DNA of 64,000 nucleotides from an uncultured Victivallales bacterium. GTDB taxonomy: Bacteria > Verrucomicrobiota > Kiritimatiellia > UBA8416. Every line of letters begins with the position of its first letter. The stretch's first letter is position 1. The stretch spans positions 54,315 through 118,314 of the forward strand of contig CAYYJS010000002.1 in the NCBI GenBank assembly GCA_964472315.1, given 5' to 3'. Shown piece by piece: positions 6,710-59,063 of this stretch. The notes below the pieces were generated by a model, which saw nothing but the letters and a program-made list of their open reading frames with translations, was not told the origin of the DNA and made no database searches. The position numbers and the translations under genes are program-made.

Positions 6710-6773
6710 ACGGCGGTGAAGCCGATGATGGTTGCGGTGCACGGATCTGACGTTGACGCAGAGGAACGACGGT

Positions 6774-25888: not shown

Positions 25889-26060
25889 GACCGTTTCCCT
25901 CTCCTTTTCGGGCTCCTGAACCCAAGGGTCTCAGGCAAGCATCACCTGCTGGCGTATGCGGGGACCCTACGGCCGGTAAGAACCCCAATGTATCTTCGTG
26001 AGTCCAATGTAGCGCATTTGCGTGGGCAAAGTCAACTGGTTTGGCGCGGCAGATTTTGCT

Positions 26061-26089
26061 TTGATTCCGGCGGCATCGTTGCCTATAGT
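26061..26089 (+). promoter_or_regulatory. Candidate sigma70-type promoter (TTGATT-17 nt-TATAGT) for the pilus-like operon
   Basis: TTGATT at 26061-26066. 17-nt spacer. TATAGT at 26084-26089. The 9-mer ATAGTACCC is repeated at 26085 and 26111. Confidence 0.3.
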
Positions 26090-26151
26090 ACCCGTGTTTC
26101 GCGGAGTCCCATAGTACCCTTGTGACCGTTATTCAGGAAAGGTGGTTTCCC

Positions 26152-26793: not shown

Positions 26794-28463
26794 TGTCGCT
26801 CTTCGAAAGTGACCGTGTCATCGCGCTGGATATCGGAGCCAGCAAGATCGTACTCGCCGAATTCGGGGTTTCCCGCGGCGGCGAAATCGAACTGCTTCGC
26901 TATGGCATCGAGAAGCAGTCGGGCGACATGGGTACGGAGGCTGACCAGTTGGCGTACATCGCCGCCAACGTACGGTCGTTGATGCGCGAACAGGGCATCA
27001 AGCCGGCGCCGCTGGTGATGTGCGTTTCGGGGCAGGCCGTGTTTCCGCGGTACGTCAAGCTGCCGCCGGTAAGTCGTGACAAGCTTCAGCAGATCGTCCA
27101 GTACGAGGCCGAGCAGAACGTACCGTTTCCCATAAAGGAAGTGGTTTGGGATTACCAGTTGCTGGGCGGCGAGGATGGCGAGCAGAATGTCATGCTCGTC
27201 GCGGTGAAGATCGAGAACGTCAAACGGTTGACCGATGCCGTGCAGACGGCCGACCTCGAGCCGGAGATCGTCGACGTCGCCCCGATGGCGCTTTACAACA
27301 CCGTTCGTTACAACTATCCGAATCTAGCCGGATGCACGATGATCCTCGATATCGGCGCCCGGTCGTCGAACCTGATTTTTATCGAGGAATCGCGAATCTT
27401 CAGCCGCAGTATCCCCGTTGCCGGAAACGCCATCACCCAGGAAATCATGAAGGCCTTCGACGTGCCGCATGACGAGGCCGAGGCGTTGAAGCGCGAGCAC
27501 GGTTTTGTCGCCTTCGGCGGCGTCTTCGCCGGTCCGGACGATGAGATCGCGGAGCGTGTCTCGAAGATCATGCGCAACGTCCTGACGCGCCTGCATGCCG
27601 AAGTGAACCGTTCGATCAATTTCTACCGCAGCCAGCAGGGCGGTTCGCCTCCGAATCTTGTCTTGTTGTGCGGCGGCTCGTCCGTGATTCCGCACGTCGA
27701 CACGTTCTTTCGCGAGAAGCTGCAGGTGGACATCGAGTATCTGAACCCGTTTGCCAGCGTCGTTGTCGGCGATGAAATCGATGCCGCCGCGATCAACCGC
27801 GACCTGCACCTGCTCGGGGAGGTTGTCGGCCTCGGACTGCGTCGGGCGCTGACGTGCCCCGTCGAGATCAATCTGATGCCGCCCGACCTCGTGGCCCGCA
27901 AGGAGTTCCGCAAGCGGCAGCCTTATTTCGTCGTTTCCGCGGTCGCCTCGGTGCTCGCCATGCTGTGTTGGTGGGTGTACTTCCACCGGATGGGGAATGT
28001 GATCGACGAGCGTGCCGGTATTGTCCGCGAGAAGATCGCCGCGTTCCGCGGGATCGAGGCGCGGTTGTCCGAGGCCGTTCGGGATCGCGGGTTTGCGCAG
28101 GCGAGGCTTGCGAAACTGGCTGCGCCGATCGCCATGCGCGGACGTTGGATCGAGTTGATCGATGCCGTGCACGCGTGCATGTGGGATGGCATGTGGGTGA
28201 CGGGGTGGAAGCCGGTTGTCGAGAATGGCCGGGTTGTGCGTATCCACCTGACCATGCATGCGTTCGTGGACCGTATGCAGAACACGCCCGAGGGCACGGC
28301 CGCCGAACGTTTCCGAAACGCGCTGCGGGACCGCCCGGAGTTTGGCGCCGACACCGACATCGCCAGCGAGATGGGGATCGGCGTCGGCGGGTTCCTGCGG
28401 AAGTTCGAGATGAAGGTTGTCGTGGCCGAGGCGCCGAGCGTCAGGGCGGTTGAGGACCGATGA
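26793..28463 (+). CDS. pilM: Type IV pilus assembly protein PilM (actin-like ATPase fold) fused to a PilN-like transmembrane/periplasmic domain
   Basis: N-terminal VIALDIGASKIVLAEF. The rest of the first 350 aa has the PilM/FtsA-like pattern. A single TM helix follows (QPYFVVSAVASVLAMLCWWVYF), then a 150-aa periplasmic tail. Confidence 0.75.
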   Translation: MSLFESDRVIALDIGASKIVLAEFGVSRGGEIELLRYGIEKQSGDMGTEADQLAYIAANVRSLMREQGIKPAPLVMCVSGQAVFPRYVKLPPVSRDKLQQIVQYEAEQNVPFPIKEVVWDYQLLGGEDGEQNVMLVAVKIENVKRLTDAVQTADLEPEIVDVAPMALYNTVRYNYPNLAGCTMILDIGARSSNLIFIEESRIFSRSIPVAGNAITQEIMKAFDVPHDEAEALKREHGFVAFGGVFAGPDDEIAERVSKIMRNVLTRLHAEVNRSINFYRSQQGGSPPNLVLLCGGSSVIPHVDTFFREKLQVDIEYLNPFASVVVGDEIDAAAINRDLHLLGEVVGLGLRRALTCPVEINLMPPDLVARKEFRKRQPYFVVSAVASVLAMLCWWVYFHRMGNVIDERAGIVREKIAAFRGIEARLSEAVRDRGFAQARLAKLAAPIAMRGRWIELIDAVHACMWDGMWVTGWKPVVENGRVVRIHLTMHAFVDRMQNTPEGTAAERFRNALRDRPEFGADTDIASEMGIGVGGFLRKFEMKVVVAEAPSVRAVEDR

Positions 28464-29548
28464 AAAGCAAACAGGTCATTCTGGTATCCATCTGCGGCGT
28501 GGGCGTCATCCTCTTCGCGCTGGCAGGCTTCCTGCTTGTGCGCGGGTTCGTGAACTTCAGCGGGGCGATCGAGAAGTTCAACAAGGAGAAACAGGCGCTG
28601 GGGCATTACTACCAGAAGAACCCGTTCCCGTCCGAGGCCAACATCCGCCTCGAAGAAGACAACGCGCAAATGTTGAACGCGTGGCATGAACAGCTCTTCA
28701 AGCGTCTGATCGCCAAGAATGTCGTCAGCACCGAGGACAGCGGATCGCGCTTTCGACAGAACTATGACGAGACGAAGAAACGTCTGCTGGGCGCGGCGAA
28801 GGACGTGCAAATCGCGGGTGGCAACACCTTTGCCTTCGGCTTCGACCGCTACTCCGGTACCGGTGAACTTCCGCAATCGTCGGAGGTGCCGGTATTGATG
28901 GAACAGCTTGCGATCGTCGAGCGGTTGTGCGGCATCCTGTTCGAGAATGGCATCAAAGCGATGGGGGCGGTGCGCCGCGACGTCGTGGAGTCGGCGTCCA
29001 CCACCGGCGGATCCGTGACGGTGCCAGGTGGTCAGCCCGGCGTGGGTTCCGCGCCGCCGGGACGTCCCGTGCGCTCGGGCGCACCGGTTGGTCCGGCCCC
29101 GCTCGTGCCGCCGAAGGCCCGGCGAAAAGCCGTGCCCGGCGACGAACCGACGGAACCCATGCGCCCCGTCGGGAAGATGTATTCACGGCTGCATTTCGGC
29201 TTCGACTTTCGCGCCAAGGAAAGCGCTTTGCTTGGTATTCTCAACGCGATGGCATCGAACGACATGTTCATTGTCATGACGTCGATTTCGTTCGAGGCGG
29301 GCGTTCCCGAGATGATGCCCGTGGCCGTGCCCGTCGTATCAGGAGGCGATGCCGCGGCGATCCCCGCTTTGCCGCCCGCCCCCGTTCCGGCGGTGGGCGC
29401 TCCGGCGGAGACAGGCAACGTGCCTCAGGCATGGGAACGACGCAAGGACGAACGCATTGTGAGTGGGCCTGTGCACGAGATCCCCATGGATGTGACTTTG
29501 GAACTCGACGTCTATAAATTCCAGCCGGAGTCGCACCATGGCGATTAG
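28460..29548 (+). CDS. PilO-like bitopic periplasmic protein (Amuc_1100-position protein)
   Basis: GAGGA RBS. N-terminal TM helix. Coiled-coil periplasmic segment. Pro/Gly-rich linker (PGGQPGVGSAPPGRPVRSGAPVGPAPLVPP). Globular C-terminus. Confidence 0.5.
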   Translation: MKSKQVILVSICGVGVILFALAGFLLVRGFVNFSGAIEKFNKEKQALGHYYQKNPFPSEANIRLEEDNAQMLNAWHEQLFKRLIAKNVVSTEDSGSRFRQNYDETKKRLLGAAKDVQIAGGNTFAFGFDRYSGTGELPQSSEVPVLMEQLAIVERLCGILFENGIKAMGAVRRDVVESASTTGGSVTVPGGQPGVGSAPPGRPVRSGAPVGPAPLVPPKARRKAVPGDEPTEPMRPVGKMYSRLHFGFDFRAKESALLGILNAMASNDMFIVMTSISFEAGVPEMMPVAVPVVSGGDAAAIPALPPAPVPAVGAPAETGNVPQAWERRKDERIVSGPVHEIPMDVTLELDVYKFQPESHHGD

Positions 29549-30608
29549 CCTGAACATCCGCGGCGGGTTTGCGCACCTGTGGCGGCAGTACGATAAGCTC
29601 ATGGCGTTCCTGGCGTTGGCGCTGCTGCTCGCCTCCCTGGTCTATCTGGCCGTGCGGGTGGGGCTGATTCAGAGCATGAAACGCGACTTCGACATGGAGA
29701 TGAAGAGCCTGCGCGCGATGCACGAAAAGGCGGCGACGGTTGCCGCCGACGTCTTCGATGCCGCCGTGGCAGGGCTCGACAAACCGGTCTCCCTGGGGCA
29801 CCAGGCGTGGACTAACGTCGCGTTTTCGGTTCCCGAGGTGCGTGTTACGTGCACCGATCAACGGTGTCAGCGGCCCGTGCCCTATGCGGCCGCGACCTGT
29901 CCTCTGTGCCTGAGCCCGCAGCGCGAGGACAAGACGGAAGTCGAGCCACCCAAGGACAGCGATGGCGATGGCATGCTCGACGATTGGGAATTGCAGTACG
30001 GACTGGACCGGTACGACGCCGGGGACGCCGCGAACGACACCGATGGCGATGGGCACAAGAATCTCGGTGAATTCCTGGCCAAGACCGACCCGACCGATCC
30101 GGCCAGCCGTCCCCCTGTCATCGATCAGTTGCGCGTGGAGAAGGTTTCGAGCGTGAGCTTCGGCATCCTGTTCAAGAGCCGAGTTACGACCGGAAAAGGC
30201 GAGCGCTTCGGTCTGAACTACAGACAGGCCGGGCAGATTAAGACGGACTTCGTCGGCGTCGGGGATACCGTGGCGGGGTTCCTCGTCAGCAAGTTCGACC
30301 ACAAGACCAGAGATGTCGATCAGCCGTACAAGCACAAGCAGGACGTCTCGGAACTGACGCTTGTCCGCGGGGACCATACCATTGTGCTTGTTCGCGGGCA
30401 GGACTACAACGAGACCGAACAGACCGCGCACTTCGTGTCGCTATTCGACGATGCGAAGTATCTGGCCAAGCAGGGCGAGTTTCTGACGGTCGACGGGTCC
30501 AGGTACGAGGTTATAGAGATTGACACTCGCGGTGAGCGTGTTGTATTACGGCCGGAAAACGATTCCGGCCAGACAGTGGTTGTACGGCGTCTCACGGTGC
30601 CCCGGTGA
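29538..30608 (+). CDS. Membrane-anchored periplasmic protein with Cys4 zinc-ribbon and two DxDxDG calcium-binding motifs
   Basis: TM helix LMAFLALALLLASLVYLAV. CTDQRC ... CPLC. DSDGDGMLDDWE and DTDGDGHKNLGEF are thrombospondin-type-3/dockerin-like motifs. C-terminal beta-rich domain. Confidence 0.5.
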   Translation: MAISLNIRGGFAHLWRQYDKLMAFLALALLLASLVYLAVRVGLIQSMKRDFDMEMKSLRAMHEKAATVAADVFDAAVAGLDKPVSLGHQAWTNVAFSVPEVRVTCTDQRCQRPVPYAAATCPLCLSPQREDKTEVEPPKDSDGDGMLDDWELQYGLDRYDAGDAANDTDGDGHKNLGEFLAKTDPTDPASRPPVIDQLRVEKVSSVSFGILFKSRVTTGKGERFGLNYRQAGQIKTDFVGVGDTVAGFLVSKFDHKTRDVDQPYKHKQDVSELTLVRGDHTIVLVRGQDYNETEQTAHFVSLFDDAKYLAKQGEFLTVDGSRYEVIEIDTRGERVVLRPENDSGQTVVVRRLTVPR

Positions 30609-30679
30609 AGGGGTGGCCGTGATGGCTCGTGTTTGTCCTCGCTAGCGGGGTGTGAGAGAATCCCAAGGAGATGTTCTTC

Positions 30680-33600
30680 ATGCAAGACGATCGGCGGTTC
30701 ATCACGACATGTTCCATTCTGTTGGCCGCATTTACGGTGGCGGCGTATGCGCAAACCGGTAAGGACGAGAGCGGTACGATGGCCTTCGAGGATCTTGCGA
30801 TCGAGAGCGCGGTGGAAGGGGCGCTACCGACGGTTTCGGCGGATGACGACCTCCTCAAGACGTTGATGTCCGGCACCGAGGCGGATGTTCCCGTTGGCGC
30901 GATCGATGTAGGGAAAACGCTTCCGACAGTGCCCGATGGCAAGTCCGCGGTGCTGACGCTGGACGATGTTCCGGCGAGCGACTTGGCCGTGATCGAGGGC
31001 GCCGAAGCTCCGGCCGTGGATGTCGCTCCGGTCGAGGAGAAGGGCGTTGACACGCGCGGATCGGCTGCGGTGGCCGCCGCAGCCGAACCGCCCGTGAATC
31101 TGGTTGACGTTGCGACCGAGCTTGGTCTTACGGGGGAGACGGAAGTCGTGCCCCCCATGCCACGCGCCGCGGTTGCGGCGCCGCCGACGGACGACCTTGC
31201 GGATCTGCTGGCCGGCGAGGAGGAAACCGTAACCGTACCGTCCGTCCCGGCGCCTCCCGTCATTCCGGTTTCGTTGGCGGAAGAGGTTCCCGTCGTGGAA
31301 TCCGTCACACCCTTGGAAACGGTTCCGGAAGAGACGGCGACGGTTTCCGCGGTTGTCGACAAAGTCCCTGCCCCGCCTGTCGTGACCGATGACATAGGAA
31401 TCGAAGACCTCATCAAGGAACTTGCAGGCGAGACCGAGGCCGAGATGGCTATCGAGCGGGTTCCGATCGAAACACCCCAGCCTCCCGCGTCTGTCGACGT
31501 CGTCCCGCCGCCCGCTGAAGACGTCCCTCCCGCACCGGTGGTCGCGCCCGTCGAAATCGTCGATCAGCCGCCGGAGTTTGTGGACGACATGGCCATCGAT
31601 GCCGACGTGCTCAAATCCCTGACACGCGAGGCACGCGCCGACACGACGACGGCTGCTGTTGCGGAGGCGCCCGCCATGGAGCTTGTCATCGAAGGCCTGA
31701 TCGATGAAGCCGAACTCGCCGTCGAGCCGCCGACGGCGCCGCCGCCGGCCCGAGTCGAAAAGCCGGTTCTGCCGATCGAGGAAACCGTCGCCGAACCGGT
31801 CGGCTCACCGTCCGTGGCGAAACCGCTTCCGCCCGTCGGAAAAACGGTAGATACTCCGACACCTGCGGTTGCCGAGGACATGGGTGCCGCTGTCGAGAAT
31901 GTGACCGCGACGGGTGAGCCTGCGATTGCTGAGCGGGCCGTTCGTAATCGGTCCGATGTCGCTCTGGACACGTTCGCGGTTCAGGAGTCCCTGAAGCGTA
32001 TCGCGGAAGAGGCGCATGGGCTGGAGAGCCTCCAACTGGGCGAGCAGGCGCTTGCCGATCGCCAGTTTCAGAAGGCCGTGACGCGGTTCGACGAAGCGTT
32101 GCGCTTCATCCCTGAGCGTGCCGACACGGTGGAATCGCGGGGCCGCGCGCGTCGTGGTCTGGCCGCGGCGTACTATGTGCAGGCGCTATCCTTCGAGCGC
32201 GAGAACGAGCTCGATAAGGCACTGGCTGCGGCCATCAACGCCGTCAACTACGGGTATATCAAGGCCGAATCCACGGTTCGCCGGCTCAAACTCAAGATCG
32301 AGAAGGGCCCGATCGCCCCGCCGCCGACGAAGGATCGCCGATGGGAAGAGGAGTCGTATCTCGACATCCAACGACAGATTCAGGAGTGGTTGAAGCGGGG
32401 GCGCGAAGCCTATTTGGCGCATGAATACGAGAAGTCGCGTGGGGCGTTCGAATCCGTCCTGGCGCGTGACCCGCACAACAAGGAAGCTATTCGCATGCTG
32501 CGGCGCGCCTCCGACAAGATGTACGACCGGGCGTCGATGGAGCTGGAATCGACGCGATCGCGCATGATGGAGTCGGTGCGTGACACTTGGAATCCGCGCG
32601 ACTATGGCATATTGGAGACGCCGATGGAGGCCAAGGTCGGACGTGCGGCCACGAAGCCGGTCGACGAGATCGAACGGGAGAAGATCCTGGCCAAGATGCA
32701 GCAGATCAGGATTCCGGAGGTCGATTTTCGGCAGGCGAACATCCGTGATGTGATCGATTTCCTGCACAGCCAGAGCGTCGAGAACGACACTACGACGGGC
32801 GAGGGGCGCAAGGGCGTCAACTTCATTCTCAAACTGGACGAAGGCGCCGCGAAGGCTGGTGGCCGGGTCACGCCTGCCGCATCCACCGATCCGTTCGCCG
32901 CCACGGCCGATGTATTCGGGGGGCCGGCGGCGGCCGCTCCGGGCGCCGGCGCCGACAACCTGGTGACGTTCGGCGCGCTCGACATTACGCTGAAGGAAGC
33001 GCTGGACATTGTCGTCGACATCGCACACCTCAAGTATCGGATCAAAGAGAGCGTCGTGATGATCGTTCCCTTCGATGAAGCATCGGGCGAGATCATCCAT
33101 CGCATGTACGACGTCTTGCCGTCTTTTGTCACGAAGTCCGGCGAATTGAGCGAAGCCTTGCGGTCCTCCCGTAGCGACCGCGGCGGCGGCGATTTTATCC
33201 CCATGGGCGAGCCCGGTGGCGGGGGCGGTGCGCCCAGCGCCGAGCAGGACTGGAAGGTGGTGTTTACGGAGATGGGTGTCGAATGGCCGCAACGGTCATC
33301 CATCAAGTACGTGCCGACGATCGGCAAGCTGATTGTCGCCAATACGGCCGAAAACCTGACGGTCTTCGAAAAGGTGCTATCGGTACTCAATGTCATTCCG
33401 TATCAGGTGGAAATCGAGGCCCGCTTCGTGGAGGTCGCCCAGACGGATATCGACTCGCTCGGACTCGAGTGGTTACTTACCGACAACTGGGAACTTGCCG
33501 AGAAGAAGACGGATGCCGGGTTGCCGCTGGCGGCGCGCGAGCGCTTGGTGCTGAACGCGAATGTCAACTCGGGCGGGTTCACCAAGGGGAATCGGTTCCT

Positions 33601-34396
33601 GACGAAAAGCGCGCCGGGCGGCATGACGCTTGCGGATGACATTCTCAGCATGAGCGCCGTGCTGACGAATCCGGAGATGTCGGTGATCCTCCACGCGTTG
33701 CAGCAGCGCGGGCACACGGACCTGCTTTCAGCGCCGAAGATCACCACGCAGTCGGGGCAGGAGGCGTCGCTCAAGGTGGTGACCGAGTACATCTACCCGA
33801 CCGAATTCGAGACGTCCGGCATTGGCGGCGGCACTACGGTTGGCGCCGGCGGCGCGGCGGTGGGGGGCGGCACGGTGGGCGCCGTCGTGACACCGACCGC
33901 GTTCGAGACGCGCGAGGTCGGCGTCATTCTCTCGGTGTTGCCGGAAGTGACCCCCGAAGGTCAGATGATCAACTTGACCATGTCGCCGGAAGTCGTCTCC
34001 GAGCCGACCTGGAAGAACTACGGATCGACGTATCAGTCGGACATCAACGGGGATGGCGTGCTCGAAACGCAGACGCTGAATATGGAACAGCCGTTTTTTC
34101 ATACGCGTCAGCTCAACACGAGCATGTTGATCTACAATGGTGCGACCGTCGTGATGGGCGGCATGATTACCGAGGTGCGGCACGATGTTGACGACAAAGT
34201 GCCGTTTCTCGGCGATATCCCGATTTTCGGACGGCTCTTCCGGAGCAAGAGCGAGACGAGCGAGAAGCGCAACCTGCTTATCTTTGTCACGGCCCGCCTG
34301 GTCGATCCGGCCGGGCGCCCCTTGGATCAGACGCGGCAGGGCTTGCTTACCGACGTGCTTGCGGAAGGCCTGATGGAGAAGGATGGCACGAAGTAG
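30680..34396 (+). CDS. pilQ: Secretin (PilQ/GspD family), giant form with low-complexity N-terminus and TPR-like segment
   Basis: Signal peptide. Roughly 450 aa that are Ala/Pro/Val/Glu-rich. TPR-like helices. C-terminal secretin domain (LLSAPKITTQSGQEASLKV ... VPFLGDIPIFGRLFRSKSETSEKRNLLIFVTARLV). Start could be 30671 or 30680. Confidence 0.85.
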   Translation: MQDDRRFITTCSILLAAFTVAAYAQTGKDESGTMAFEDLAIESAVEGALPTVSADDDLLKTLMSGTEADVPVGAIDVGKTLPTVPDGKSAVLTLDDVPASDLAVIEGAEAPAVDVAPVEEKGVDTRGSAAVAAAAEPPVNLVDVATELGLTGETEVVPPMPRAAVAAPPTDDLADLLAGEEETVTVPSVPAPPVIPVSLAEEVPVVESVTPLETVPEETATVSAVVDKVPAPPVVTDDIGIEDLIKELAGETEAEMAIERVPIETPQPPASVDVVPPPAEDVPPAPVVAPVEIVDQPPEFVDDMAIDADVLKSLTREARADTTTAAVAEAPAMELVIEGLIDEAELAVEPPTAPPPARVEKPVLPIEETVAEPVGSPSVAKPLPPVGKTVDTPTPAVAEDMGAAVENVTATGEPAIAERAVRNRSDVALDTFAVQESLKRIAEEAHGLESLQLGEQALADRQFQKAVTRFDEALRFIPERADTVESRGRARRGLAAAYYVQALSFERENELDKALAAAINAVNYGYIKAESTVRRLKLKIEKGPIAPPPTKDRRWEEESYLDIQRQIQEWLKRGREAYLAHEYEKSRGAFESVLARDPHNKEAIRMLRRASDKMYDRASMELESTRSRMMESVRDTWNPRDYGILETPMEAKVGRAATKPVDEIEREKILAKMQQIRIPEVDFRQANIRDVIDFLHSQSVENDTTTGEGRKGVNFILKLDEGAAKAGGRVTPAASTDPFAATADVFGGPAAAAPGAGADNLVTFGALDITLKEALDIVVDIAHLKYRIKESVVMIVPFDEASGEIIHRMYDVLPSFVTKSGELSEALRSSRSDRGGGDFIPMGEPGGGGGAPSAEQDWKVVFTEMGVEWPQRSSIKYVPTIGKLIVANTAENLTVFEKVLSVLNVIPYQVEIEARFVEVAQTDIDSLGLEWLLTDNWELAEKKTDAGLPLAARERLVLNANVNSGGFTKGNRFLTKSAPGGMTLADDILSMSAVLTNPEMSVILHALQQRGHTDLLSAPKITTQSGQEASLKVVTEYIYPTEFETSGIGGGTTVGAGGAAVGGGTVGAVVTPTAFETREVGVILSVLPEVTPEGQMINLTMSPEVVSEPTWKNYGSTYQSDINGDGVLETQTLNMEQPFFHTRQLNTSMLIYNGATVVMGGMITEVRHDVDDKVPFLGDIPIFGRLFRSKSETSEKRNLLIFVTARLVDPAGRPLDQTRQGLLTDVLAEGLMEKDGTK
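30900..32000 (+). repeat. Low-complexity, reiterated Pro/Val/Ala/Glu-rich coding segment inside the secretin gene
   Basis: Recurring VPAPPV, AEEVPVVESVTPLETVPEE and VDVVPPPAEDVPPAPVVAPVEIVD units. It produces the long spurious antisense ORF 30592..31416. Confidence 0.5.
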
Positions 34397-49436: not shown

Positions 49437-50216
49437 ATGAGAGTGACGCATAACAGGGCGTTGATCAGGGTGGTCATGGTAGTCCTCGGCACGGGTGCCG
49501 CGATGGCGGCGGGAGCGGACTTCTCGCGTTACCAGAGCATTCTTGACCGGCGCCCTTTCGGGGCCGGCGAAAAAGCCGAGGCGGGTGAACCGGCGCGCGT
49601 CACGATGCCGGCGCAGGCGCCGTCGTTTGTGAAGGGCCTGCGTATGTGCGCGATCACCGAGAGCGATATCGGAACGCGTGTCGGCTTCGTCGAGATCGGG
49701 GGCAAGACGCCGAAGTCATACTACCTCTACGTCGGGGATGTTGAAGACGGCATTCAACTCGTCGATGCGGATTACGAGCGAGAGGGCGCGTTGCTGCGCA
49801 AGGGCGACGAGCAGTACTGGATCTACATGCGCGAGAATCAACCGACCGCGGTTTCGGAAGCGATGCCGCCCGGGCCTTCCGGTTCTCCCGCCCGGTCGCG
49901 AGTTGTCGGCATCCCCGCTCCCGGCGAGCGTACGCTGCGTGAACCGGCGATGGACGGCGCGCCTTTGACCGCGGGCGGCGCGCGCGAGTCGTATGCCGAG
50001 AGACGCCGCCGCCGACTCGATGAAATGCGGCAGCGCGTGCGGTCGTCGCGCGAGATTGAACCCGAGGATCTCGAGCAGCGGTTGCAGGATTACCAGATGC
50101 ACCTGATCCGTTCGGGGAAGACGCCGTTGCCGATTCCCTTGACGCCGGAAGCCGACCAGAAGCTGGTCGACGAAGGCGTACTGCCGCCGGTCGAAGCGTC
50201 CGCACCCAAGGAGTAG
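49437..50216 (+). CDS. Secreted hypothetical protein, paralog A of a tandem pair
   Basis: Signal peptide. Conserved DFSRYQSILDRRPFG, RMCAIT ... RVGFVEIGG, KSYYLYVGD ... LVDADYERE and a C-terminal LPIPLTPEADQKLVDEGVL. Confidence 0.55.
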   Translation: MRVTHNRALIRVVMVVLGTGAAMAAGADFSRYQSILDRRPFGAGEKAEAGEPARVTMPAQAPSFVKGLRMCAITESDIGTRVGFVEIGGKTPKSYYLYVGDVEDGIQLVDADYEREGALLRKGDEQYWIYMRENQPTAVSEAMPPGPSGSPARSRVVGIPAPGERTLREPAMDGAPLTAGGARESYAERRRRRLDEMRQRVRSSREIEPEDLEQRLQDYQMHLIRSGKTPLPIPLTPEADQKLVDEGVLPPVEASAPKE

Positions 50217-50222
50217 CCATCC

Positions 50223-51029
50223 GTGCACCTGCGACGACACATGCGCAAGAGGATCCGCGACACGCTGCCGGCGCTTCTGGCACTGGGCGCCGCGGCGGGC
50301 ATGGTTGTCCCGGCGGAGACCGTGCGCGGGGCGCTTGCGGCGAGCGATTTTTCGCGATATCAGGTCATTCTTGACCGACGGCCTTTCGGCGCTGCCGTCG
50401 AACCCGATGCCGTCGGCGCCGCGCCGGTTGCGGTACCGACGGCATCGTTTGCGCCGCGGATCCGCATGTGTGCCATCACGGCGCGGAGCGGGCAGATCCG
50501 TGTCGGGTTCGTCGATCAGGGCGTCAAGCCCGAGAAGTCCTATTACCTCTTCGTGGGCGAATCCGAGGACGGGTTCGAAGTTGTCGACGCCGACTACGCG
50601 AAAGAGGTCTTTCTCCTGCGCAAAGACGGCCATGAGGGCTGGATATCCATGCGGGAAGGCGATGGGGAATCAATGCCTGCGCCGCGCGTTGCGTTTTCGC
50701 CACCTGGCGGCAGACCTTCCTACTCTGGTAGTAGACGAGTGCTCATTCCAGCATCGGGGGTGACGCCTGAGCAATATCGACGTGAAGTCGAGGCTGGTAC
50801 TCGTCCGAAACCACGTTCCGCCGTGACGGCATTCAACCGATACATAGACCAAGACGGCGCCGTGCTCAGCACGGATGCCGCGGAACAGAGCGAGGCATCT
50901 TTACGTGCGTACAATCTTGAGCTGATCCGCGCCCGTGGCAGCAAAGGGCCCGCCCTTCCTATCCCGCTGACCCCCGACGAGGACGCGCAACTCGTCAAGG
51001 AGGGAGTCCTTTCCGAGGTGGGCGAGTGA
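50223..51029 (+). CDS. Secreted hypothetical protein, paralog B of a tandem pair
   Basis: Same motif set as paralog A (DFSRYQVILDRRPFG, KSYYLFVGESEDGFEVVDADYAKE, LPIPLTPDEDAQLVKEGVL). Confidence 0.55.
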   Translation: MHLRRHMRKRIRDTLPALLALGAAAGMVVPAETVRGALAASDFSRYQVILDRRPFGAAVEPDAVGAAPVAVPTASFAPRIRMCAITARSGQIRVGFVDQGVKPEKSYYLFVGESEDGFEVVDADYAKEVFLLRKDGHEGWISMREGDGESMPAPRVAFSPPGGRPSYSGSRRVLIPASGVTPEQYRREVEAGTRPKPRSAVTAFNRYIDQDGAVLSTDAAEQSEASLRAYNLELIRARGSKGPALPIPLTPDEDAQLVKEGVLSEVGE

Positions 51030-51309
51030 AAGTGGTCGATACCGACAGAATCGAGGCCCAAAGCTGGTGCGCCCCGAAAGGAAGGGCAATCGGCCAATGA
51101 CATGACGTGAAAAATACTTGCCATGGCACACGCAGACGTGCTACCGTACTGACACTAAGGGAAACCATTAGGTTCTAGAATGTGACTCGATTGCATCGCA
51201 GAATCAGAATAGGGTTGACGGGCTGCGATAGGTGATCTAGCATATTCTTCAGACACTAAGAGGCATGCTTTAGTAACTGAATGTGTGTTGCCGAAAGGGA
51301 GGACCAGCG

Positions 51310-52365
51310 ATGAAAAAGATAGTGTTGGTTGCGTGCGCAGTGGCTATGCTGAGTTCGTTCGCTCCGGCGGACACGGTAACCAGCGTCAATGTGGTGGGTG
51401 TGTTCAATGTCACAGTGGAGGCCGGAGTGTCTAATGCGCTCACCTTCATTGGTGTGCCAATGACGAAACTTCCAGTGGCTCGCGGTCAAGTATTGAGCAG
51501 CACGGCGAGTACTCTCACAGGCAACGGCGTCACTTGGGATTCGAATGCGTTCGCTCCCGGTGGCGGGGCAGCCGGTGAGAACGGTGTCAGCACCTATTAC
51601 GTGGAAATCACGAGCGGCGCGATGGAAGGGCGGCATTTCTATATTACCGCGAATGACACAACCACGCTGACCCTCGCGACAACCGAATTGGGTGGCGGCG
51701 TGGCGGACGGCCAGAATTTCAAGATCATCCCTGCAAATCGCGTACGTGATGTATTCGGGGAGCCAGGTTCAGCAGATATTAAGTTGCGTGGCGGTTCGAC
51801 ATCTGCGGATGCCGATAGTCTCCGGGTATGGGATAACAGCCAGGGCAAATGGTCTAGTCCAATATTCTACCAGAACGCTGGCCGCAATCCTGCTAATGCA
51901 TGGCTGCAGGGCGGTGTGGCGGCAAATGACCTTGTGATTGATCGTGATGTTGGTGTATTAGTCCAGACACTGGGCGCTGCAGGACGTGACGACGTAAAGA
52001 TTGCCGTCCTTGGCGAAGTATCGGGAAATGATCAGAGTATCGTCTTGGAATCGGGTGCAGCGCTTCTAGGTGGAATGGTTGCTGTGGATACCCCGATTGG
52101 GCAGGCTGGGCTTGAGCCCCCGGTTCTTGAGGGTGGATCAACTTCAGCTGATGCCGATTCAATTCTGTACTGGGATGTAGCGCAGGGCAAATGGTCGACT
52201 CCCGTATTTTTTCAGAATGAAGGGCGTAACCCCGCCAATGCATGGCTGCAGTCGGGTGTTATCGTCAACCAAACGTTCATACTCAAAGCTGGACAAGCGT
52301 ACTTTTTCCGTTTGGCTCCTGGCACGGATGGCAATTTGTGGAATCGTCCCTCGCCGTTGAAGTAG
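51310..52365 (+). CDS. Secreted protein with an internal approximately 45-aa duplication
   Basis: GGGAGG RBS 7 nt upstream. Signal peptide MKKIVLVACAVAMLSSFA. Repeat units GGSTSADADSLRVWDNSQGKWSSPIFYQNAGRNPANAWLQGGV and GGSTSADADSILYWDVAQGKWSTPVFFQNEGRNPANAWLQSGV. Confidence 0.6.
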   Translation: MKKIVLVACAVAMLSSFAPADTVTSVNVVGVFNVTVEAGVSNALTFIGVPMTKLPVARGQVLSSTASTLTGNGVTWDSNAFAPGGGAAGENGVSTYYVEITSGAMEGRHFYITANDTTTLTLATTELGGGVADGQNFKIIPANRVRDVFGEPGSADIKLRGGSTSADADSLRVWDNSQGKWSSPIFYQNAGRNPANAWLQGGVAANDLVIDRDVGVLVQTLGAAGRDDVKIAVLGEVSGNDQSIVLESGAALLGGMVAVDTPIGQAGLEPPVLEGGSTSADADSILYWDVAQGKWSTPVFFQNEGRNPANAWLQSGVIVNQTFILKAGQAYFFRLAPGTDGNLWNRPSPLK

Positions 52366-52434
52366 ACCAATTCTGTTGTTGACAGGGTTGTCTAGGCGAA
52401 GAGGTGAAGTGATTTCAGAGCGAGAGGAAAATAA

Positions 52435-53103
52435 ATGAAAATGTACAAGTTAGGGGCAATCTCAAGTGTGGTGTTTTTTTTCGGAGTTGTTGTGCAGTCG
52501 CAAGCGGTGCTGAGTGTAAATATCGCTGGAGGCGGTGATTCGGTGCTTTATAACAGTTCGGGAATTGCGCTGAGTGATTCCGGTCTCGTCTTTGAACTCA
52601 TTGTTGATACAGACAACAATACCGATATAGCAGGTCTGGTAACTTCTAGGATGCTGAATATGACAGGCGATTCGGTATTGCTTGGCGGCGTTCATGCGTC
52701 CGCTGTGAATGACCTGGTTGTCGGATTTTACAACTGGACGTACGATTCCGGAGTCCATTTCATTCAGGAGGGGCTTGGCTATGAGCATGAATTCTCCGTG
52801 CCAGATGCGCATGCGTCAGACGCCTTCTATATCCGTTGGTTCAATGCGGATAAGAGCGAAGCAGGTTTCATCTATTCGGATTCGGACTCTTGGGCCACGC
52901 CTCCAGATTCAGGGTCATCAATTCTCACGCCGGACATTAGTTACTGGGTCTATTCGACGACGACACGAGTGGCTGGCAATGATGGCACCATGAACGGTTC
53001 ACTCGGTTGGCAGACCGTTGCGCCGGTGCCGGAGCCCACATCGCTCGCGTTGTTGGCGATCGGTATGGCGACGTTAGCCGTTAGCCGTCGGCGTCGCACT
53101 TAA
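52435..53103 (+). CDS. PEP-CTERM sorting-domain protein (exosortase substrate)
   Basis: Signal peptide. The C-terminus is VPEP-TSLALLAIGMATLAV-SRRRRT, i.e. PEP motif, TM helix, then a basic cluster. Confidence 0.8.
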   Translation: MKMYKLGAISSVVFFFGVVVQSQAVLSVNIAGGGDSVLYNSSGIALSDSGLVFELIVDTDNNTDIAGLVTSRMLNMTGDSVLLGGVHASAVNDLVVGFYNWTYDSGVHFIQEGLGYEHEFSVPDAHASDAFYIRWFNADKSEAGFIYSDSDSWATPPDSGSSILTPDISYWVYSTTTRVAGNDGTMNGSLGWQTVAPVPEPTSLALLAIGMATLAVSRRRRT

Positions 53104-53200
53104 GTCGACGGGTATTTGATACGCAGCGGGGAGCTGGCCATGGGTCAGCTCCCCGTTTTCTTTCTTGTACTCGAGCGATGCTTCCCGCTTACTGAATCCG

Positions 53201-56200
53201 ATGAAAACGCCCCCTTCAGTCACGCGAGTTGCAAGCATTGTGCTGGGCACGGTTCTGGGGCTCGCTGCGCTGGGTATCTACGGGAGTACGGTGCCCCAAG
53301 GTGCCTATCCCGGCGGATCGGCCGAGTTGATCGTTCAGCAGACCGGTCTTGTGCCTGTGATATCGCCGCGTTTTCCGCTCTGGCGTGCCGCCGCATGGTT
53401 GCTCAAGTTCATTCCCGCGGGCGATCTGCCACTGCGGCTCAACCTGTTCAGCGCGCTCTGCGGAGTGCTGGTGGTGTGGTTGCTTCATGCGACGATGGTG
53501 CGCGCCATTCACGTCGTGCTGGAGGATTCGTCCGCGCGCGCGGGACGCGCGTTCGTGGCGAAGCAGGCGGCGGGGGTGGCGGCGGCCGTGGCTCTGATGG
53601 TATCGGTTCCGTTCTGGTGCGTTTCGAATCGCGCGCACACGGGCGCGTTCGACCTGTTATTGCTCGTCGCGTGCGCGTGGTTGCTGTTGCGTTACCACGA
53701 GCGGGGGCGGTTGCGGGATGCGCTGGCGCTTGTGCTGCTGTTTGGTGCGGGCCTCGCCGAGTTGGCGACAATGATCGTGTTCGCGCCGCTGCTGGCGGTG
53801 GCGCTGGTCTACTGCCTGTGGTCGCATGAATCGCTGCGCCCCGGCCCCATTGCCGGGTTGACGGTCGCCTTCCTTGCCGCCGCATCATCCGTCTATCTCC
53901 TGGCGGCATGGGCCTTCCACGGGTCGCCGGGCTATGCGCTCAGGGACTACAGCGGGTTCCTGGAGATCGTCTGGCACATGTGGCGTGAACAGTACGGTCT
54001 CATCACGTCAAGCCTGCCGAGGGAAGGATGGCTCATCATCCTCTTCGTTTCGGTCGTGCCGTGGCTCGCGTGTCTGGTCGTGGCGCGGCGCGGCATCAAC
54101 GACGAACGCGATTACGGCAGCGCCATCCTGCATGTCGTGCTGACGGCCCTTGCGCTGGGCGTGCTCCTGAACTCGCGGTTCAGCCCGTGGGCCATTCTGG
54201 GTGGCGATCGGTTGCTCGTAACTCCGTACCTCCTGACGAGTATGCTGTACGGGTATCTGACGGCATACTGGTTTCTGTTGCCGACGCGGTGGATTGCCGA
54301 GAGCGACCGGCGCGGAGCGGAGTTTCTTCGCCGGTGCCTGGGTCCGGCGCTGGCCATTCCCCTTTTGGGGGTGCTGGTATGGACCGGTATCCGCAATGCG
54401 CCTGAGGCGAACGCCCGGCGCGGCGGCCTTGTCGACGCCTATGCATCGCGCGTCGTCGATGCCCTGCGCGGACGGACATGGCTTGTGACCGATGGCGTCA
54501 TTGACAACCATATCCTGCTGGCGGCGTACGAGCGAGACGTCCCATTACGCCTGATCAGCGCGAGCCCCTATGTGAATAGTGTCTACCTGAAATATGTGGG
54601 GACACTGTTCGACGACCCTCAACTGAAGAATCTTGCGGCGCTCGGAACGCTGCCGCTGCTTGCCGAGTGGATGTCGCGCGACCCGGATATCGCCGGCAAG
54701 CTCGCGGTCCTCGATCTGCCGGACCTCTGGGTGAGCGCGGGGTATTCCGCCATTCCGTCCGGATTGGTGTATTTCGGCGGTGCGCCCGGCGCTACCGTTC
54801 CGGGCGACATCGTGGCGCAACAGGCCGATGTCTGGGCGTACATGTCGGCGATGAGCGATCGGCGGGACACGCTGCCTGCCGATGTCCGCAGGCTCGTGGA
54901 CGAGTTCTATCGACACACCGGCGTGCTGGCCAACAATCTCGGCGTCGCGCTTGAATCCGAGTCCCGGCATGCGGAAGCCGAGGCCTGCTATCGGCAGGCG
55001 CGCCGGCTTTCACCCGACAACGTCAGCGCCCTGCTTAACCTTGCCGTGATGGTGCGGGAGAAGCGGATCGCGGACGATGGCGGCGCGATCCAACAGGCGA
55101 TGGACCGGCTCGCCGAGGAGAGCAAGGGTCGATACCGCATCTGGTCGCTCTCGCGGTACTATGGGTATGTACGCGTGCCGGAAGCCTTCGCGGACTTGGG
55201 GTGGACGTGGGCGCAGTCCGGGCGTCCCGAGCTCGCGCAAGCGCGCATGGCGCAGGCGCTCAGTCTCGCCGGCGCCGATAACCGCGCCGGACTGCAGCGC
55301 ATGATGGCCGGGGTCCTGCTGCTGCAGGGCGATGCGGACGAAAGCGCGGAGATACTCGAGAAGTTGGTGGCCGAGAACCCGAAGGACGTTCGCAGTCTGT
55401 TGGGGTTGGCGCGTGTCGAACTGCGGCGCGGCGGGCTGGATGTTTCCGAAAATTTGTTGCGGCGCGCGGAAGAGGCGGGCGCCGATGCCAATGCGCTGGT
55501 TTACGACCGTGCGCGACTGGCGATGGCCCGCGGCAAGACCGATGAAGCGCGCGAGGCCCTGACCGCATTGATACGGCAACGTTCCGAGGATCCTGAACTG
55601 TGGGCGCTCTTGGCGGAAGTGGCGCTGTTGGCTCACGATTTCGGGCGCGCCGGGGACCATCTTGGGCGTCTGGAACAGCTTGAAGGACCGCGCGGGTTCC
55701 GCGGGGCGGTGCTGCGCGGACGCATGGCGCTTATGCAGTCGGACCTGGAGCGCGCGCGACACGAATTCGAGGCGGCGGCGCAGATTCGTCCGAATGACGT
55801 ACCCCTGATGGACATGCTGCTGCGCATCTGCGTCGCCTTGCGGCAACAGGGCGCGGTCTGGCACTACGCGCGGGAGATCCTGAAGCGTGACCGCAACCAT
55901 GCGTTCGCGCTCAACATGCTGGGGTTGCTGCGTGTGGGGGAGGGACGGCTCGATCTGGCCGAGGCCGCTCTGCGGCGCAGTCTGGAAATCAGACGGACGC
56001 CTGCCATTCTCAACGATCTCGCTTGGACGTTGTGCCTGCTGAAACAGTACGAGGAGGCCGAGCGACTGATTCGCGAATGCCTTGCGCAGAACGCCGCGAA
56101 CTATGCGTATCAGGACACGCTGGGTACGATTCTGATGCGTGTCGGGCGACACGCCGAGGCGGCCGAAGCGTTCGAGAAGGCGCTGGCGCTCTATCAGCGG

Positions 56201-56356
56201 GACCTGCAGGTCCACGTGAAAATGGCGGAGTGTCAGGCGGTGTTGGGCAATCGCGACCGTGCGAGATCGTTGTTGGATGCGCTCGCGCCCTTTGCCGGGG
56301 CGCTGTCGGAGGAAGACCGCGAGTCGATCGTGAAGGTCCGACGGTTGCTGGAGTAG
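53201..56356 (+). CDS. Large polytopic membrane protein (about 11 TM) with a C-terminal approximately 600-aa TPR array
   Basis: N-terminal hydrophobic helices through approximately residue 430. More than 12 TPR-like units follow (AEAEACYRQARRLSPDN ... ALALYQRDLQVHVKMAECQ). Start taken at MKTPPSV. Confidence 0.6.
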   Translation: MKTPPSVTRVASIVLGTVLGLAALGIYGSTVPQGAYPGGSAELIVQQTGLVPVISPRFPLWRAAAWLLKFIPAGDLPLRLNLFSALCGVLVVWLLHATMVRAIHVVLEDSSARAGRAFVAKQAAGVAAAVALMVSVPFWCVSNRAHTGAFDLLLLVACAWLLLRYHERGRLRDALALVLLFGAGLAELATMIVFAPLLAVALVYCLWSHESLRPGPIAGLTVAFLAAASSVYLLAAWAFHGSPGYALRDYSGFLEIVWHMWREQYGLITSSLPREGWLIILFVSVVPWLACLVVARRGINDERDYGSAILHVVLTALALGVLLNSRFSPWAILGGDRLLVTPYLLTSMLYGYLTAYWFLLPTRWIAESDRRGAEFLRRCLGPALAIPLLGVLVWTGIRNAPEANARRGGLVDAYASRVVDALRGRTWLVTDGVIDNHILLAAYERDVPLRLISASPYVNSVYLKYVGTLFDDPQLKNLAALGTLPLLAEWMSRDPDIAGKLAVLDLPDLWVSAGYSAIPSGLVYFGGAPGATVPGDIVAQQADVWAYMSAMSDRRDTLPADVRRLVDEFYRHTGVLANNLGVALESESRHAEAEACYRQARRLSPDNVSALLNLAVMVREKRIADDGGAIQQAMDRLAEESKGRYRIWSLSRYYGYVRVPEAFADLGWTWAQSGRPELAQARMAQALSLAGADNRAGLQRMMAGVLLLQGDADESAEILEKLVAENPKDVRSLLGLARVELRRGGLDVSENLLRRAEEAGADANALVYDRARLAMARGKTDEAREALTALIRQRSEDPELWALLAEVALLAHDFGRAGDHLGRLEQLEGPRGFRGAVLRGRMALMQSDLERARHEFEAAAQIRPNDVPLMDMLLRICVALRQQGAVWHYAREILKRDRNHAFALNMLGLLRVGEGRLDLAEAALRRSLEIRRTPAILNDLAWTLCLLKQYEEAERLIRECLAQNAANYAYQDTLGTILMRVGRHAEAAEAFEKALALYQRDLQVHVKMAECQAVLGNRDRARSLLDALAPFAGALSEEDRESIVKVRRLLE

Positions 56357-57272: not shown

Positions 57273-59063
57273 GTGACATCGAGAGTGAAGAACGAACAAG
57301 GCCACACATTCCACATCCCGGTCATGGGTACCGGGTTCACGATCGATACCCCGTTGCGAGTGGCCCGCTATGGCATTTCGTCCGTCGTATCGCTGGTCGA
57401 CGATGTCCTGATCGAGTATGTTCGGCGCCACCATTGTACGGCTTCCGGCGAGCCCTACGAGCCGATCGGCGCTCGTGAACCGGACTCGCGCGCCCGCCGT
57501 ATCACCGCCTATCTGGACCTGCTCCACCGCATGATCTCTCGTCAGGTGGACGCTTTGCGGGCATCCCCGTTCGAGCCGGGCAGCGAGATTACCCGCTACT
57601 ACGAACTGCTGCCCGAGGGACCGCGCAAAGCGCAGTACCGAGACATGCAGGCATGCACCGATCCCGTGCGGCGGGCCGCGCTTCAGAAGGAGTTGCGCAC
57701 GAGGACCACGGTGGGTACGGTCGATGTGAACATCATGACGAAACTGGATCGGCAGCCTTACCGTGATGGGAAGAAGCTCGCGCACGAATTCAGCGACGCC
57801 ATGTCGGCGTTGCGCGGCTATGCCAACAGCGTGCTGTGTTCATCCATCATTTTCTCCGCGGGATTGAATCCTCATTTGTACGGGTATGTGACGGCGTTCA
57901 AGGATTTCTTTCCGGATGCGACCGGTGGGTTCCGGAAGCAGATCGTGCTCAAGGTCAGCGATTTTCGCTCAGCCATGGTGCAGGGCCGGTACTTCGCCAA
58001 GCATGGGTTGTGGGTTTCCGAGTTCCGCGTGGAATCCGGCCTCAACTGCGGTGGACATGCGTTTGCGACCAAAGGCGATCTGGCGGGGCCGATCCTTCAG
58101 GAGTTTGTCGATCGGCGCGAGGAACTCGCGGCGCAGTTGCTGAAGGTTTACGGCAAGGCTGTGGCGGCGGCCGGCTATGCCGCTCCCAGCGTGGCGCCGC
58201 CCGTTCGTGTCACCTATCAGGGCGGTGTGGCGACGGCGGCCGAGCATGAGATGCTGATGGAGACTTTTCATCTTGACGGCATCGGGTGGGGAACGCCGTT
58301 TCTGCTTGTGCCGGAGGCCACATGCGTCGACGACGATACGCTTCGGAAGCTGGCGGAGGCCGACGAGGAGGCGGTTTGCCTCGGCGAAGCGTCGCCGCTT
58401 GGCATTCCGTTCTGGACCCTGCGCGATTCGGCCAGCGAGGAGGCTCGCCGTCGGCGCATCGCCCAGGGCGCGCCCGGCAGCGGTTGTCCAAAGGGATTCC
58501 TCGAGCTGGATACGGAGTTTGGCGAGATGCCGCTCTGCCGTGCCTCGCGCGCCTACCAGTCCCTGAAGTTGGCGAGTCTTTCCTCCGCCGACCTGACCGA
58601 GCCGCAACGCGAGGCGGTGCGGCGGGATGTCATGGCGCGATCGTGCATCTGCCACGATCTCGGTGGCGGCGCGGGCATCAAGTACGGTTTCGACAGGGAT
58701 GCCACGCCGGCTGTCTGCCCGAGCAAGAGCATCGTTTCGTTTTCGAGCATCGTCTCGTTCGACGACATGGTCGGGCATATCTACGCCCGGCTTTCGCTGC
58801 TGACGGACGCCCACCGGCCGCATGTCTTCCTGCGCGAATTGTCTCTGAACATCGCGTATTTGCGCCAGCAGATCGACCGGCATACGCTTGGCCTGGCGGT
58901 GCAGAAGGCGGGGCATTTCCGCGAATTCCACGACAACCTGTCAGCGGGCATTGCGTACTACCGCGAGCGTGTCGCGCGTCTTGCGCTCGACGCTCAGGAT
59001 CGGTTTTCGAGCGAGCTCGCCAACCTCGAGTCCGAGCTTTCCGCCCTGCCCCTGCCGGCGTAG
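57273..59063 (+). CDS. Hypothetical 596-aa protein; weak resemblance to FMN-dependent TIM-barrel (nitronate monooxygenase/FabK-like) N-terminal domain
   Basis: HIPVMGTGFTIDTPLRVARYGISSVVS and LNCGGHAF echo the PxxxxPMxGxS/T ... AGG and GGH motifs of NPD-family enzymes. A Cys-rich C-terminal half is unrecognised. Confidence 0.35.
   Translation: MTSRVKNEQGHTFHIPVMGTGFTIDTPLRVARYGISSVVSLVDDVLIEYVRRHHCTASGEPYEPIGAREPDSRARRITAYLDLLHRMISRQVDALRASPFEPGSEITRYYELLPEGPRKAQYRDMQACTDPVRRAALQKELRTRTTVGTVDVNIMTKLDRQPYRDGKKLAHEFSDAMSALRGYANSVLCSSIIFSAGLNPHLYGYVTAFKDFFPDATGGFRKQIVLKVSDFRSAMVQGRYFAKHGLWVSEFRVESGLNCGGHAFATKGDLAGPILQEFVDRREELAAQLLKVYGKAVAAAGYAAPSVAPPVRVTYQGGVATAAEHEMLMETFHLDGIGWGTPFLLVPEATCVDDDTLRKLAEADEEAVCLGEASPLGIPFWTLRDSASEEARRRRIAQGAPGSGCPKGFLELDTEFGEMPLCRASRAYQSLKLASLSSADLTEPQREAVRRDVMARSCICHDLGGGAGIKYGFDRDATPAVCPSKSIVSFSSIVSFDDMVGHIYARLSLLTDAHRPHVFLRELSLNIAYLRQQIDRHTLGLAVQKAGHFREFHDNLSAGIAYYRERVARLALDAQDRFSSELANLESELSALPLPA

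Follow-up and report, generated by a model that had tools for sequence, protein, structure and literature searches.

The question raised by this locus is whether a sharp local change in base composition marks DNA that has recently come from elsewhere. Within a 64,000-nt stretch from an uncultured Victivallales bacterium (contig CAYYJS010000002.1; "the window" below is the whole of this 64 kb), the block at 51030-53105 is much poorer in guanine plus cytosine (GC) than its surroundings, and it contains two genes, here called gene 1 and gene 2. An earlier note on this DNA suggested horizontal acquisition of the block, or alternatively selection for a distinct expression regime. Our analysis indicates that the block is probably a vertically inherited two-gene operon encoding two exported, β-rich proteins of a surface structure. 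The compositional break is a long-maintained property of the gene pair, and is neither a scar of acquisition nor specific to this genome.

The drop in GC at 51.0-53.1 kb is borne out by the computed profiles, and is the most extreme in the window. The block has 52.6% GC, compared with a window mean of 63.6% (standard deviation 2.5%, calculated in 2076-nt windows), and is the GC minimum among all 2076-nt windows of the 64 kb. In 300-nt windows, GC is 0.47-0.58 inside the block and 0.60-0.69 in the flanks, and it is back up by about 53.3 kb. GC at third codon positions (GC3) is 0.545 in gene 1 and 0.547 in gene 2, against 0.794 ± 0.028 for the 37 other genes in the window (z approximately -8.8). 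The edges of the break in GC and GC3 coincide with gene boundaries, and the low GC extends evenly across both genes and both intergenic spacers, namely the 280-nt region upstream of gene 1 (51030-51309, 50% GC), which had been described as an AT-rich leader, and the 69-nt spacer between the genes (43.5% GC).

The deficit lies mainly at synonymous sites. The observed GC contents of gene 1 and gene 2 are 54.5% and 51.4%, and become 63.8% and 60.5% respectively when the genes are recoded with window-typical codons; synonymous codon choice accounts for about 9 GC points of the deficit. The codon usage of the pair is unlike that of every other gene in the window and is shifted to T- and A-ending codons (CGT 0.58 and GGT 0.35, with similar shifts to GCT/GCA, GTA and CCA). 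The G/C and A/T skews at third positions are ordinary in both genes, and resemble those of other genes.

The same deviation is found in relatives. The GC of the pair was compared with that of its flanks at 14 independent loci, each with 2 kb or more of flank. The pair was below its flanks at all 14 (mean -7.2 points, Wilcoxon p = 1.2e-4), and these include members with no more than about 27% identity to gene 1. The GC of the pair is confined to a narrower range (0.48-0.57) than that of the flanks (0.50-0.65), with a slope of pair on flank of 0.38. At L024 (L numbers denote loci), for example, the two genes have GC3 values of 0.55 and 0.54, compared with 0.72-0.87 in their neighbours, and short variants of gene 1, discussed below, have GC3 values of 0.44-0.45 against 0.59-0.88 in their neighbours (L012, L013 and L041). 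Because the deviation is seen in 14 of 14 lineages, the composition is no sign of recent transfer.

The location of the pair is also conserved. In Victivallales-like relatives with 37-67% identity to gene 1, the gene order is nadE, X1, X2, gene 1, gene 2, a glycosyltransferase-TPR gene and an rluB-like pseudouridine synthase gene, where X1 and X2 are the two genes immediately upstream of the block (Table 1). The nearest named relatives are uncultured Victivallales, and the exact gene-1 protein was found on public contigs with the same neighbours as in the window. The pair is at the syntenic site in L014, L016, L018, L020, L008, L003 and L012. Identities to the proteins of the window are 67% for gene 1, 54% for gene 2 and 68% for the glycosyltransferase in L014; 55% for X1, 51% for X2, 46% for gene 1, 42% for gene 2, 43% for the glycosyltransferase and 53% for rlu in L016; and 76% for nadE, 55% for X1 and 39% for gene 1 in L020. 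By this measure, the divergence of the pair tracks that of its flanks. The earlier note had proposed checking whether the orthologous flanks in related genomes lack the insert. The pair is present there, which is evidence against acquisition.

The signals around the two genes suggest that the low-GC block is, on balance, a self-contained operon with its own promoter and a strong terminator. The TTGACG-17-TAGCAT element noted earlier is present, and is credible as the gene-1 promoter because its position is conserved; a lone match would not beat chance, since one match was found in this stretch where 1.7 are expected. The TTGAC hexamer is located 81-97 nt before the ATG in eight lineages (the window, L016, L018, L020, L008, L031, L026 and L003), and a -10 sequence TAnnAT follows 16-19 nt past it in seven of the eight, L018 having TAACCT. 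A/T tracts occur just upstream of the -35 hexamer in several relatives. The GGGAGG ribosome-binding site that had been assigned to gene 1 is likewise present, and AGGAGG-like sites align with it in relatives. The remaining intergenic DNA upstream of gene 1 cannot be aligned among relatives, save for a few short blocks.

The leader also contains a 17-bp palindrome. In four lineages (the window, L016, L018 and L008) the start codon of gene 1 is preceded at 147-171 nt by the pattern CTAAGGG-N3-CCCTTAG with at most two mismatches, which is unique in the window at that stringency. It is a candidate site for a regulator. A looser copy, CTAAGAGGCATGCTTTAG, is found at 51256-51273, directly past the -10 hexamer. 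An Rfam scan of 50900-53300 at E ≤ 1 gave no RNA family, and hence no known riboswitch or leader RNA, and a reading of the leader sequence showed no sigma-54 GG-N10-GC box.

Gene 1 and gene 2 belong to already catalogued families. Residues 27-338 of gene 1 align end to end with TIGR02597, an NCBIfam 'paralog' model (positions 16-348 of 363), with a borderline score of 51.6 bits against a cut-off of 50. A search with a profile made from its 26 closest homologues returned 2027 representative clusters (50% identity) at E ≤ 1e-3 and 778 at E ≤ 1e-10. TIGR02597 was matched by 46 of 60 sampled relatives (best E = 4e-84), and for this reason gene 1 is taken to be a divergent branch of this large uncharacterised family. 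No paper mentioning TIGR02597 was found in the searchable literature, and gene 1 has no Pfam domain. The protein starts with a Sec-type signal peptide, MKKIVLVACAVAMLSSFAPA, followed by DTVTS. It is built from small β-barrel domains in the AlphaFold2 model, which has a mean predicted local distance difference test (pLDDT) score of 87, and a PDB structure search gave no full-length structural match.

Two segments of gene 1 are repeats of each other, with 62% identity over 61 residues (E = 4e-26) and starts that are 114 residues apart. These correspond to what had been described as a tandem duplication of about 45 residues: the duplication is real, but it is not tandem, as 53 residues separate the copies. 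Both repeats are present in 26 of 26 close homologues, and in distant ones; the duplication is ancient. The mean identity between the two copies within a protein is 61%, compared with 36% for the same repeat across different proteins, and the best repeat-2 partner of a repeat-1 almost always comes from its own protein. Lineage-specific motifs, such as YLIDPRNP in L014, are found in both repeats, encoded by different codons. Recent gene conversion between the repeats was considered and rejected: at residues identical in both, the same codon was used 356 times, compared with about 361 expected by chance (22 loci). Two readings of the co-variation are left: gene conversion that was rare and took place long ago, with purifying selection afterwards, or selection acting in parallel on the two copies. 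On either reading the two repeat loops apparently have to match, which would be expected if they touch two copies of the same partner.

Gene 2 is, as judged from its sequence, a genuine PEP-CTERM protein. Its C-terminal end, VPEPTSLALLAIGMATLAVSRRRRT, has the layout VPEP-TSLALLAIGMATLAV-SRRRRT, consisting of the PEP motif, a transmembrane helix and a terminal basic cluster. This tail, already recognised in the earlier note, scores above the cut-offs of both TIGR02595 (26.9 bits, cut-off 16) and PF07589 (27.6 bits, cut-off 20.7), and is the only PEP-CTERM tail found in a six-frame scan of the window. P199, E200, P201, L206 and G210 are invariant in 23 gene-2 homologues, and the transmembrane segment and Arg/Lys cluster are retained in all 23, as well as in the distant pairs. 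The signal peptide, MKMYKLGAISSVVFFFGVVVQSQA, was judged by inspection. The model of gene 2 (pLDDT 78) has a hydrophobic helix at 5-19, a β-sandwich core and a C-terminal helix at 201-221, and a PDB search gave no relative of the core. On the floc_PepA model (NF033554) gene 2 scores 36.7 bits over residues 42-222, which is below the cut-off of 80, and distant gene-2-type partners score 24-29 bits.

The main reason for proposing that the two proteins are physical partners is that their linkage recurs so often. Wherever the sequence beyond a stand-alone gene-1 relative was readable (about 20 independent contigs), the next gene encodes a PEP-CTERM protein of 190-250 aa, which shares the core motifs of gene 2 (for example FYFRWFN) and a (V/I)PEP, helix and Arg/Lys tail. 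The adjacency extends to the distant members L022, L024, L025 and L011, with identities as low as about 26%. Downstream of the pair comes gspF in L024 and L025, and in L024 a gene for the pseudopilin GspG as well. At some loci the same slot, ahead of a PEP-CTERM gene resembling gene 2, is filled by short variants of gene 1, in which the N-terminal domain is missing but the signal peptide, the DTVTSVNVVG strand and both repeat domains are retained. Two of their loci (L012 and L041) have an X1-like gene about 0.8 kb upstream, with one open reading frame (ORF) between.

The gene-1 module also occurs as the C-terminal 320 residues or so of giant proteins of 990-2195 aa (P0067, P0071, P0072, P0075, P0095, P0185 and P0189). 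P0067, P0071 and P0072 have lamin-tail and CotH domains, with Fn3-associated domains also in P0067 and P0072, while P0095 has Ig-like domains. The large gene at the P0067 locus (L023 6001-12576) has a normal GC3 of 0.81. One giant-protein locus has, just upstream, a gene whose product contains a gene-2-like domain and lacks the sorting tail. This occurrence fits a role for the gene-1 module as a docking or attachment domain.

We therefore suggest the following for the operon. A sigma-70-type promoter would give a transcript with an untranslated 5' leader of about 60 nt, followed by gene 1 and gene 2 and closed by the terminator. Both products would leave the cytoplasm via Sec, and an exosortase encoded elsewhere in the genome would recognise gene 2 at VPEP, so that it becomes attached to the outer envelope or exopolysaccharide, or embedded in it. 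Gene 1 would then dock on gene 2, plausibly by its two matching repeat loops, to give a two-component surface structure, and the enzyme encoded by the adjacent glycosyltransferase-TPR gene may glycosylate one or other of the products.

Several observations weigh against this proposal. The argument for an interaction between gene 1 and gene 2 is drawn solely from adjacency. Gene 1 clears the TIGR02597 cut-off by 1.6 bits. The glycosyltransferase-TPR gene is missing beside the pair in L018, L003 and L021, and is therefore not an obligate partner. The shift of the pair to T- and A-ending codons is not the usual high-expression codon pattern of this genome. Finally, as the earlier note had remarked, there is no exosortase among the genes of the window, which covers 64 kb of the genome. 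This last point is expected and is no anomaly, because PEP-CTERM genes are normally scattered over the genome: there is a median of 8 per genome, with 65 in V. spinosum against 2 EpsH genes (Haft 2006, PMC1569441), and most are single-gene operons behind large intergenic regions and depend on a distant EpsH (PMC1569441). In A. muciniphila, 23 PEP-CTERM proteins are accompanied by a single EpsH-like gene (PMC4960237).

There are three candidate causes of the low GC: selection on mRNA or translation, escape from a force that raises GC3 elsewhere, and recurrent allele exchange. Under the first two, low GC3 would be kept in place by selection or by some other mechanism, and to this we give slightly less than an even chance. 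By the first route, an abundant secreted pair would be selected for weakly structured, A/T-richer mRNA or for translation rate; by the second, fast-evolving genes would escape the GC-biased gene conversion and weak selection that raise GC3 elsewhere. Maintenance in place would explain why the deficit is family-wide, grows with host GC and affects synonymous sites, and why it is even over both genes and both spacers. The consensus-like conserved promoter, A/T tracts, strong ribosome-binding site and terminator also resemble a dedicated expression unit. However, enolase, which is typically highly expressed, is biased in the opposite direction: the enolase gene in this window prefers C-ending codons (CGC 0.85, GGC 0.80). 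This weakens a simple high-expression reading, and optimal-codon usage was rejected as the cause on the same grounds. The ordinary third-position skews provide no signature of transcription-associated mutation, and such a mutation bias was likewise rejected. Maintenance in place addresses the composition and not the function of the pair, and is compatible with the inherited operon proposed above. A distinct expression regime, as a persistent property tied to the genes themselves, is a better direction than acquisition.

The third cause is recurrent allele replacement, in which a variable surface cassette is swapped via its conserved flanks so that its composition never equilibrates. Pilin and O-antigen loci in other bacteria are variable surface cassettes of lower GC at fixed sites. 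A process of this kind here would fit the narrow GC band of the pair and its shallow slope against the flanks, the divergence of gene 1 and gene 2, which is the highest in the cassette when set against nadE, rlu and X1, and the short gene-1 variants, which at the same slot share only the N-terminal 36-51 residues (54-59% identity). We nevertheless consider it improbable. The identities of gene 1 and the glycosyltransferase are close (67/68%, 46/43% and 40/40%), where a recent swap predicts otherwise, and the glycosyltransferase diverges equally fast yet has normal GC3. Because the divergence of the pair is congruent with that of its flanks, selection on mRNA or translation, or escape, is favoured over allele exchange.

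That the block is a recently acquired island from a lower-GC donor, placed between nadE/X2 and the TPR gene, is very improbable and already largely refuted: the sharp break at gene boundaries and the aberrant codon usage are what it would predict, but the same cassette is found at the same site down to 37-40% gene-1 identity with divergence that tracks the flanks, independent recent acquisitions would be needed everywhere to give the deficit in all 14 lineages, and marks of mobility were not seen (no tRNA genes in the window, no flanking direct repeats longer than 19 nt around the block, and no match to an integrase or transposase among the neighbouring ORFs scanned), so that the acquisition suggested in the earlier note is not supported. 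Equally hard to believe is a relic or orphan sorting signal on gene 2 in a genome that lacks an exosortase, because a relic would not be as conserved as this tail is, and the distance normally found between PEP-CTERM genes and their exosortase (PMC1569441) accounts for its absence from the 64-kb window.

It follows that a sharp GC break alone is no proof of horizontal transfer. Environmental and gut bacteria have many PEP-CTERM proteins, almost none of which has a known partner or role. The regularities reported here, namely an obligate PEP-CTERM partner, co-varying repeats and a GC deficit across deep divergence, were not found described, and gene 1 and gene 2 are a concrete pair for tests of interaction and surface localisation. 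A wider and much more tentative suggestion, more likely wrong than right, is that TIGR02597 proteins and their small PEP-CTERM partners form an unrecognised two-component surface assembly of PVC-group bacteria, which may take the form of a fibre or a layer, or may serve giant LTD/CotH adhesins as a docking system. Its anchor would be the PEP-CTERM subunit, processed by an exosortase and bound by the TIGR02597 module through two repeat loops that have to change in step, and in some lineages the assembly may cooperate with genes of type II secretion or pilus-like type (GspF and GspG, adjoining in L024 and L025). If so, the family-wide low synonymous GC would be a selected or recombination-related signature of such surface genes.

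Table 1. Positions of the features discussed. Coordinates are those of the window unless a locus is named; gene-1 percentages are identities to gene 1 of the window.
Feature	Coordinates	Strand	Description
X1	49437..50216	+	Membrane-anchored protein, first of the paralogous pair upstream of the operon
X2	50223..51029	+	Paralogue of X1, intermediate GC3 (0.68)
17-bp palindrome CTAAGGGAAACCATTAG	51155..51171	.	Candidate regulator-binding site, about 50 nt upstream of the -35 hexamer
Palindrome copies	L016 1505-1521; L018 5540-5556; L008 67-83		Conserved 17-bp element
Sigma-70-type promoter TTGACG-17-TAGCAT	51215..51243	+	Putative; position kept in relatives
Gene 1 ribosome-binding site GGGAGG	51297..51302	+	AGGAGG-like sites align in relatives
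Gene 1	51310..52365	+	351-aa Sec-exported all-β protein, divergent TIGR02597 member
Internal repeat copy 1	51757..51939	+	Gene 1 residues 150-210
Internal repeat copy 2	52099..52281	+	Gene 1 residues 264-324
Gene 2 ribosome-binding site GAGAGGA	52422..52428	+	Within the 69-nt spacer
Gene 2	52435..53103	+	222-aa secreted β-sandwich protein with PEP-CTERM tail
PEP-CTERM sorting signal	53023-53100	+	Gene 2 residues 197-222
Intrinsic terminator	53125..53157	+	15-bp stem with 10 G-C pairs, then TTCTTTCTT; closes the operon
GT-C/TPR gene	53201..56356	+	TMEM260-like / PMT_2 membrane glycosyltransferase with C-terminal TPR repeats, GC3 0.78
Pilus-like cluster: 534-aa ORF		-	Weak Amuc_1099-family match
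Pilus-like cluster: Amuc_1102-family pilus-like protein	26122-26793		51.4 bits, just missing the cut-off of 55
Pilus-like cluster: PilM	26793-28463
Pilus-like cluster: two ORFs			Without family match
Pilus-like cluster: secretin	30671-34396		1241 aa; also a weak, sub-threshold TPR match
Short gene-1 variants	L012 9965-10663; L041 5965-6663; L013 2459-3226; L040 24-782		232-255 aa
Relative locus L020			Gene 1 39%; nadE - X1 - X2 - gene 1 - gene 2
Relative locus L016			Gene 1 46%; X1 - X2 - gene 1 - gene 2 - glycosyltransferase/TPR - rluB-like
Relative locus L014			Gene 1 67%; gene 1 - gene 2 - glycosyltransferase/TPR
Relative locus L008			Gene 1 40%; gene 1 - gene 2 - three inserted genes - glycosyltransferase/TPR - rluB-like

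The neighbouring genes were also characterised. X1 and X2 are 43% identical, and share the invariant motifs DFxRYxxILDRRPFG and LPIxLTPEEDAQLVxEGVL. Orthologues of X1 (41-57% identity) are found upstream of gene 1 in L016, L018, L020 and L012, and those of X2 in L016, L018, L020, L003 and L038. Neither gave a match in Pfam (a lenient scan of nine members), NCBIfam or a PDB profile search (E ≤ 10). Their central segment may resemble a PilP/GspC-type domain, a lead that no Pfam or PDB match backs.

The gene downstream of the operon, whose start was taken from the gene call in L001, matches PF11028 (42.4 bits, cut-off 24.2), PF13231 (25.5 bits) and many TPR families. The earlier description of it as a transmembrane and TPR protein is right in that it has a multi-pass membrane domain and TPR repeats, but the likeness to PrsT, the PEP-CTERM-associated TPR protein, does not hold. 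On TIGR02917, the PrsT model, it reaches 128.4 bits against a cut-off of 312, a score that is spread over three stretches and represents generic TPR similarity, and its N-terminus is a multi-pass domain and not that of a lipoprotein. The gene is syntenic in L014, L016, L008 and L028.

The rest of the window is ordinary chromosome, with nadE, ispD, clpP/clpX, tig, rho, eno, gltX, glnS, sensor kinases and a pilus-like cluster. This cluster, which is pilus-like or type II secretion-like, is at 24284-34396, about 17 kb upstream of the operon. Three sensor histidine kinase genes lie in a row (6732-8807, 8749-10389 and 10386-12017), followed by a response-regulator gene at 12119-12895. Downstream of the pseudouridine synthase gene there is a 596-aa ORF (57273-59063) with normal codon usage and no Pfam match. 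Two long ORFs on opposite strands, 1440-3116 (minus) and 2608-4137 (plus), overlap by about 500 nt and both have high GC3; neither has a match in NCBIfam, and one start is probably miscalled.

Among known systems, the PEP-CTERM/exosortase system (PMC1569441) is matched by gene 2 in its signal peptide, novel mature domain and VPEP, helix and Arg tail, as well as in the long upstream intergenic region and the lack of a nearby exosortase. The operon differs in that gene 2 is always the second of two genes and follows a TIGR02597 gene, whereas most PEP-CTERM genes elsewhere are single, and in having a sigma-70-like promoter and a palindrome and not the proteobacterial sigma-54 PEP-CTERM box.

In pepA-prsT of Aquincola tertiaricarbonis and Zoogloea there is likewise a small PEP-CTERM gene directly before a large TPR gene, and in Aquincola it contributes to exopolysaccharide retention within flocs (PMC9850573). 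Gene 2 and its distant relatives have a weak similarity to the PepA model that goes beyond the sorting tail. However, both the PepA and PrsT cut-offs are failed, the TPR neighbour here is a GT-C fusion, neither an RpoN-type promoter nor a nearby prsK or prsR was seen, and the phylum is another one (Lentisphaerota-like).

The TIGR02597 family itself is aligned by gene 1 over its full length, the gene-1 subfamily being divergent, as its score of 51.6 bits indicates. The downstream enzyme resembles the GT-C O-mannosyltransferases of TMTC and TMEM260 type, in having a multi-pass PF11028/PF13231 domain followed by a long TPR array; it is unlike them in being bacterial, and its tie to gene 1 and gene 2 is positional only and is missing at some loci. 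In comparison with pilin and O-antigen loci, the products here have a Sec signal peptide and are all-β and not pilins, and the GC deficit extends across very deep divergence. What the operon has in common with those loci is a set of low-GC surface genes at a syntenic site, and in some alleles a conserved N-terminus with a variable remainder.

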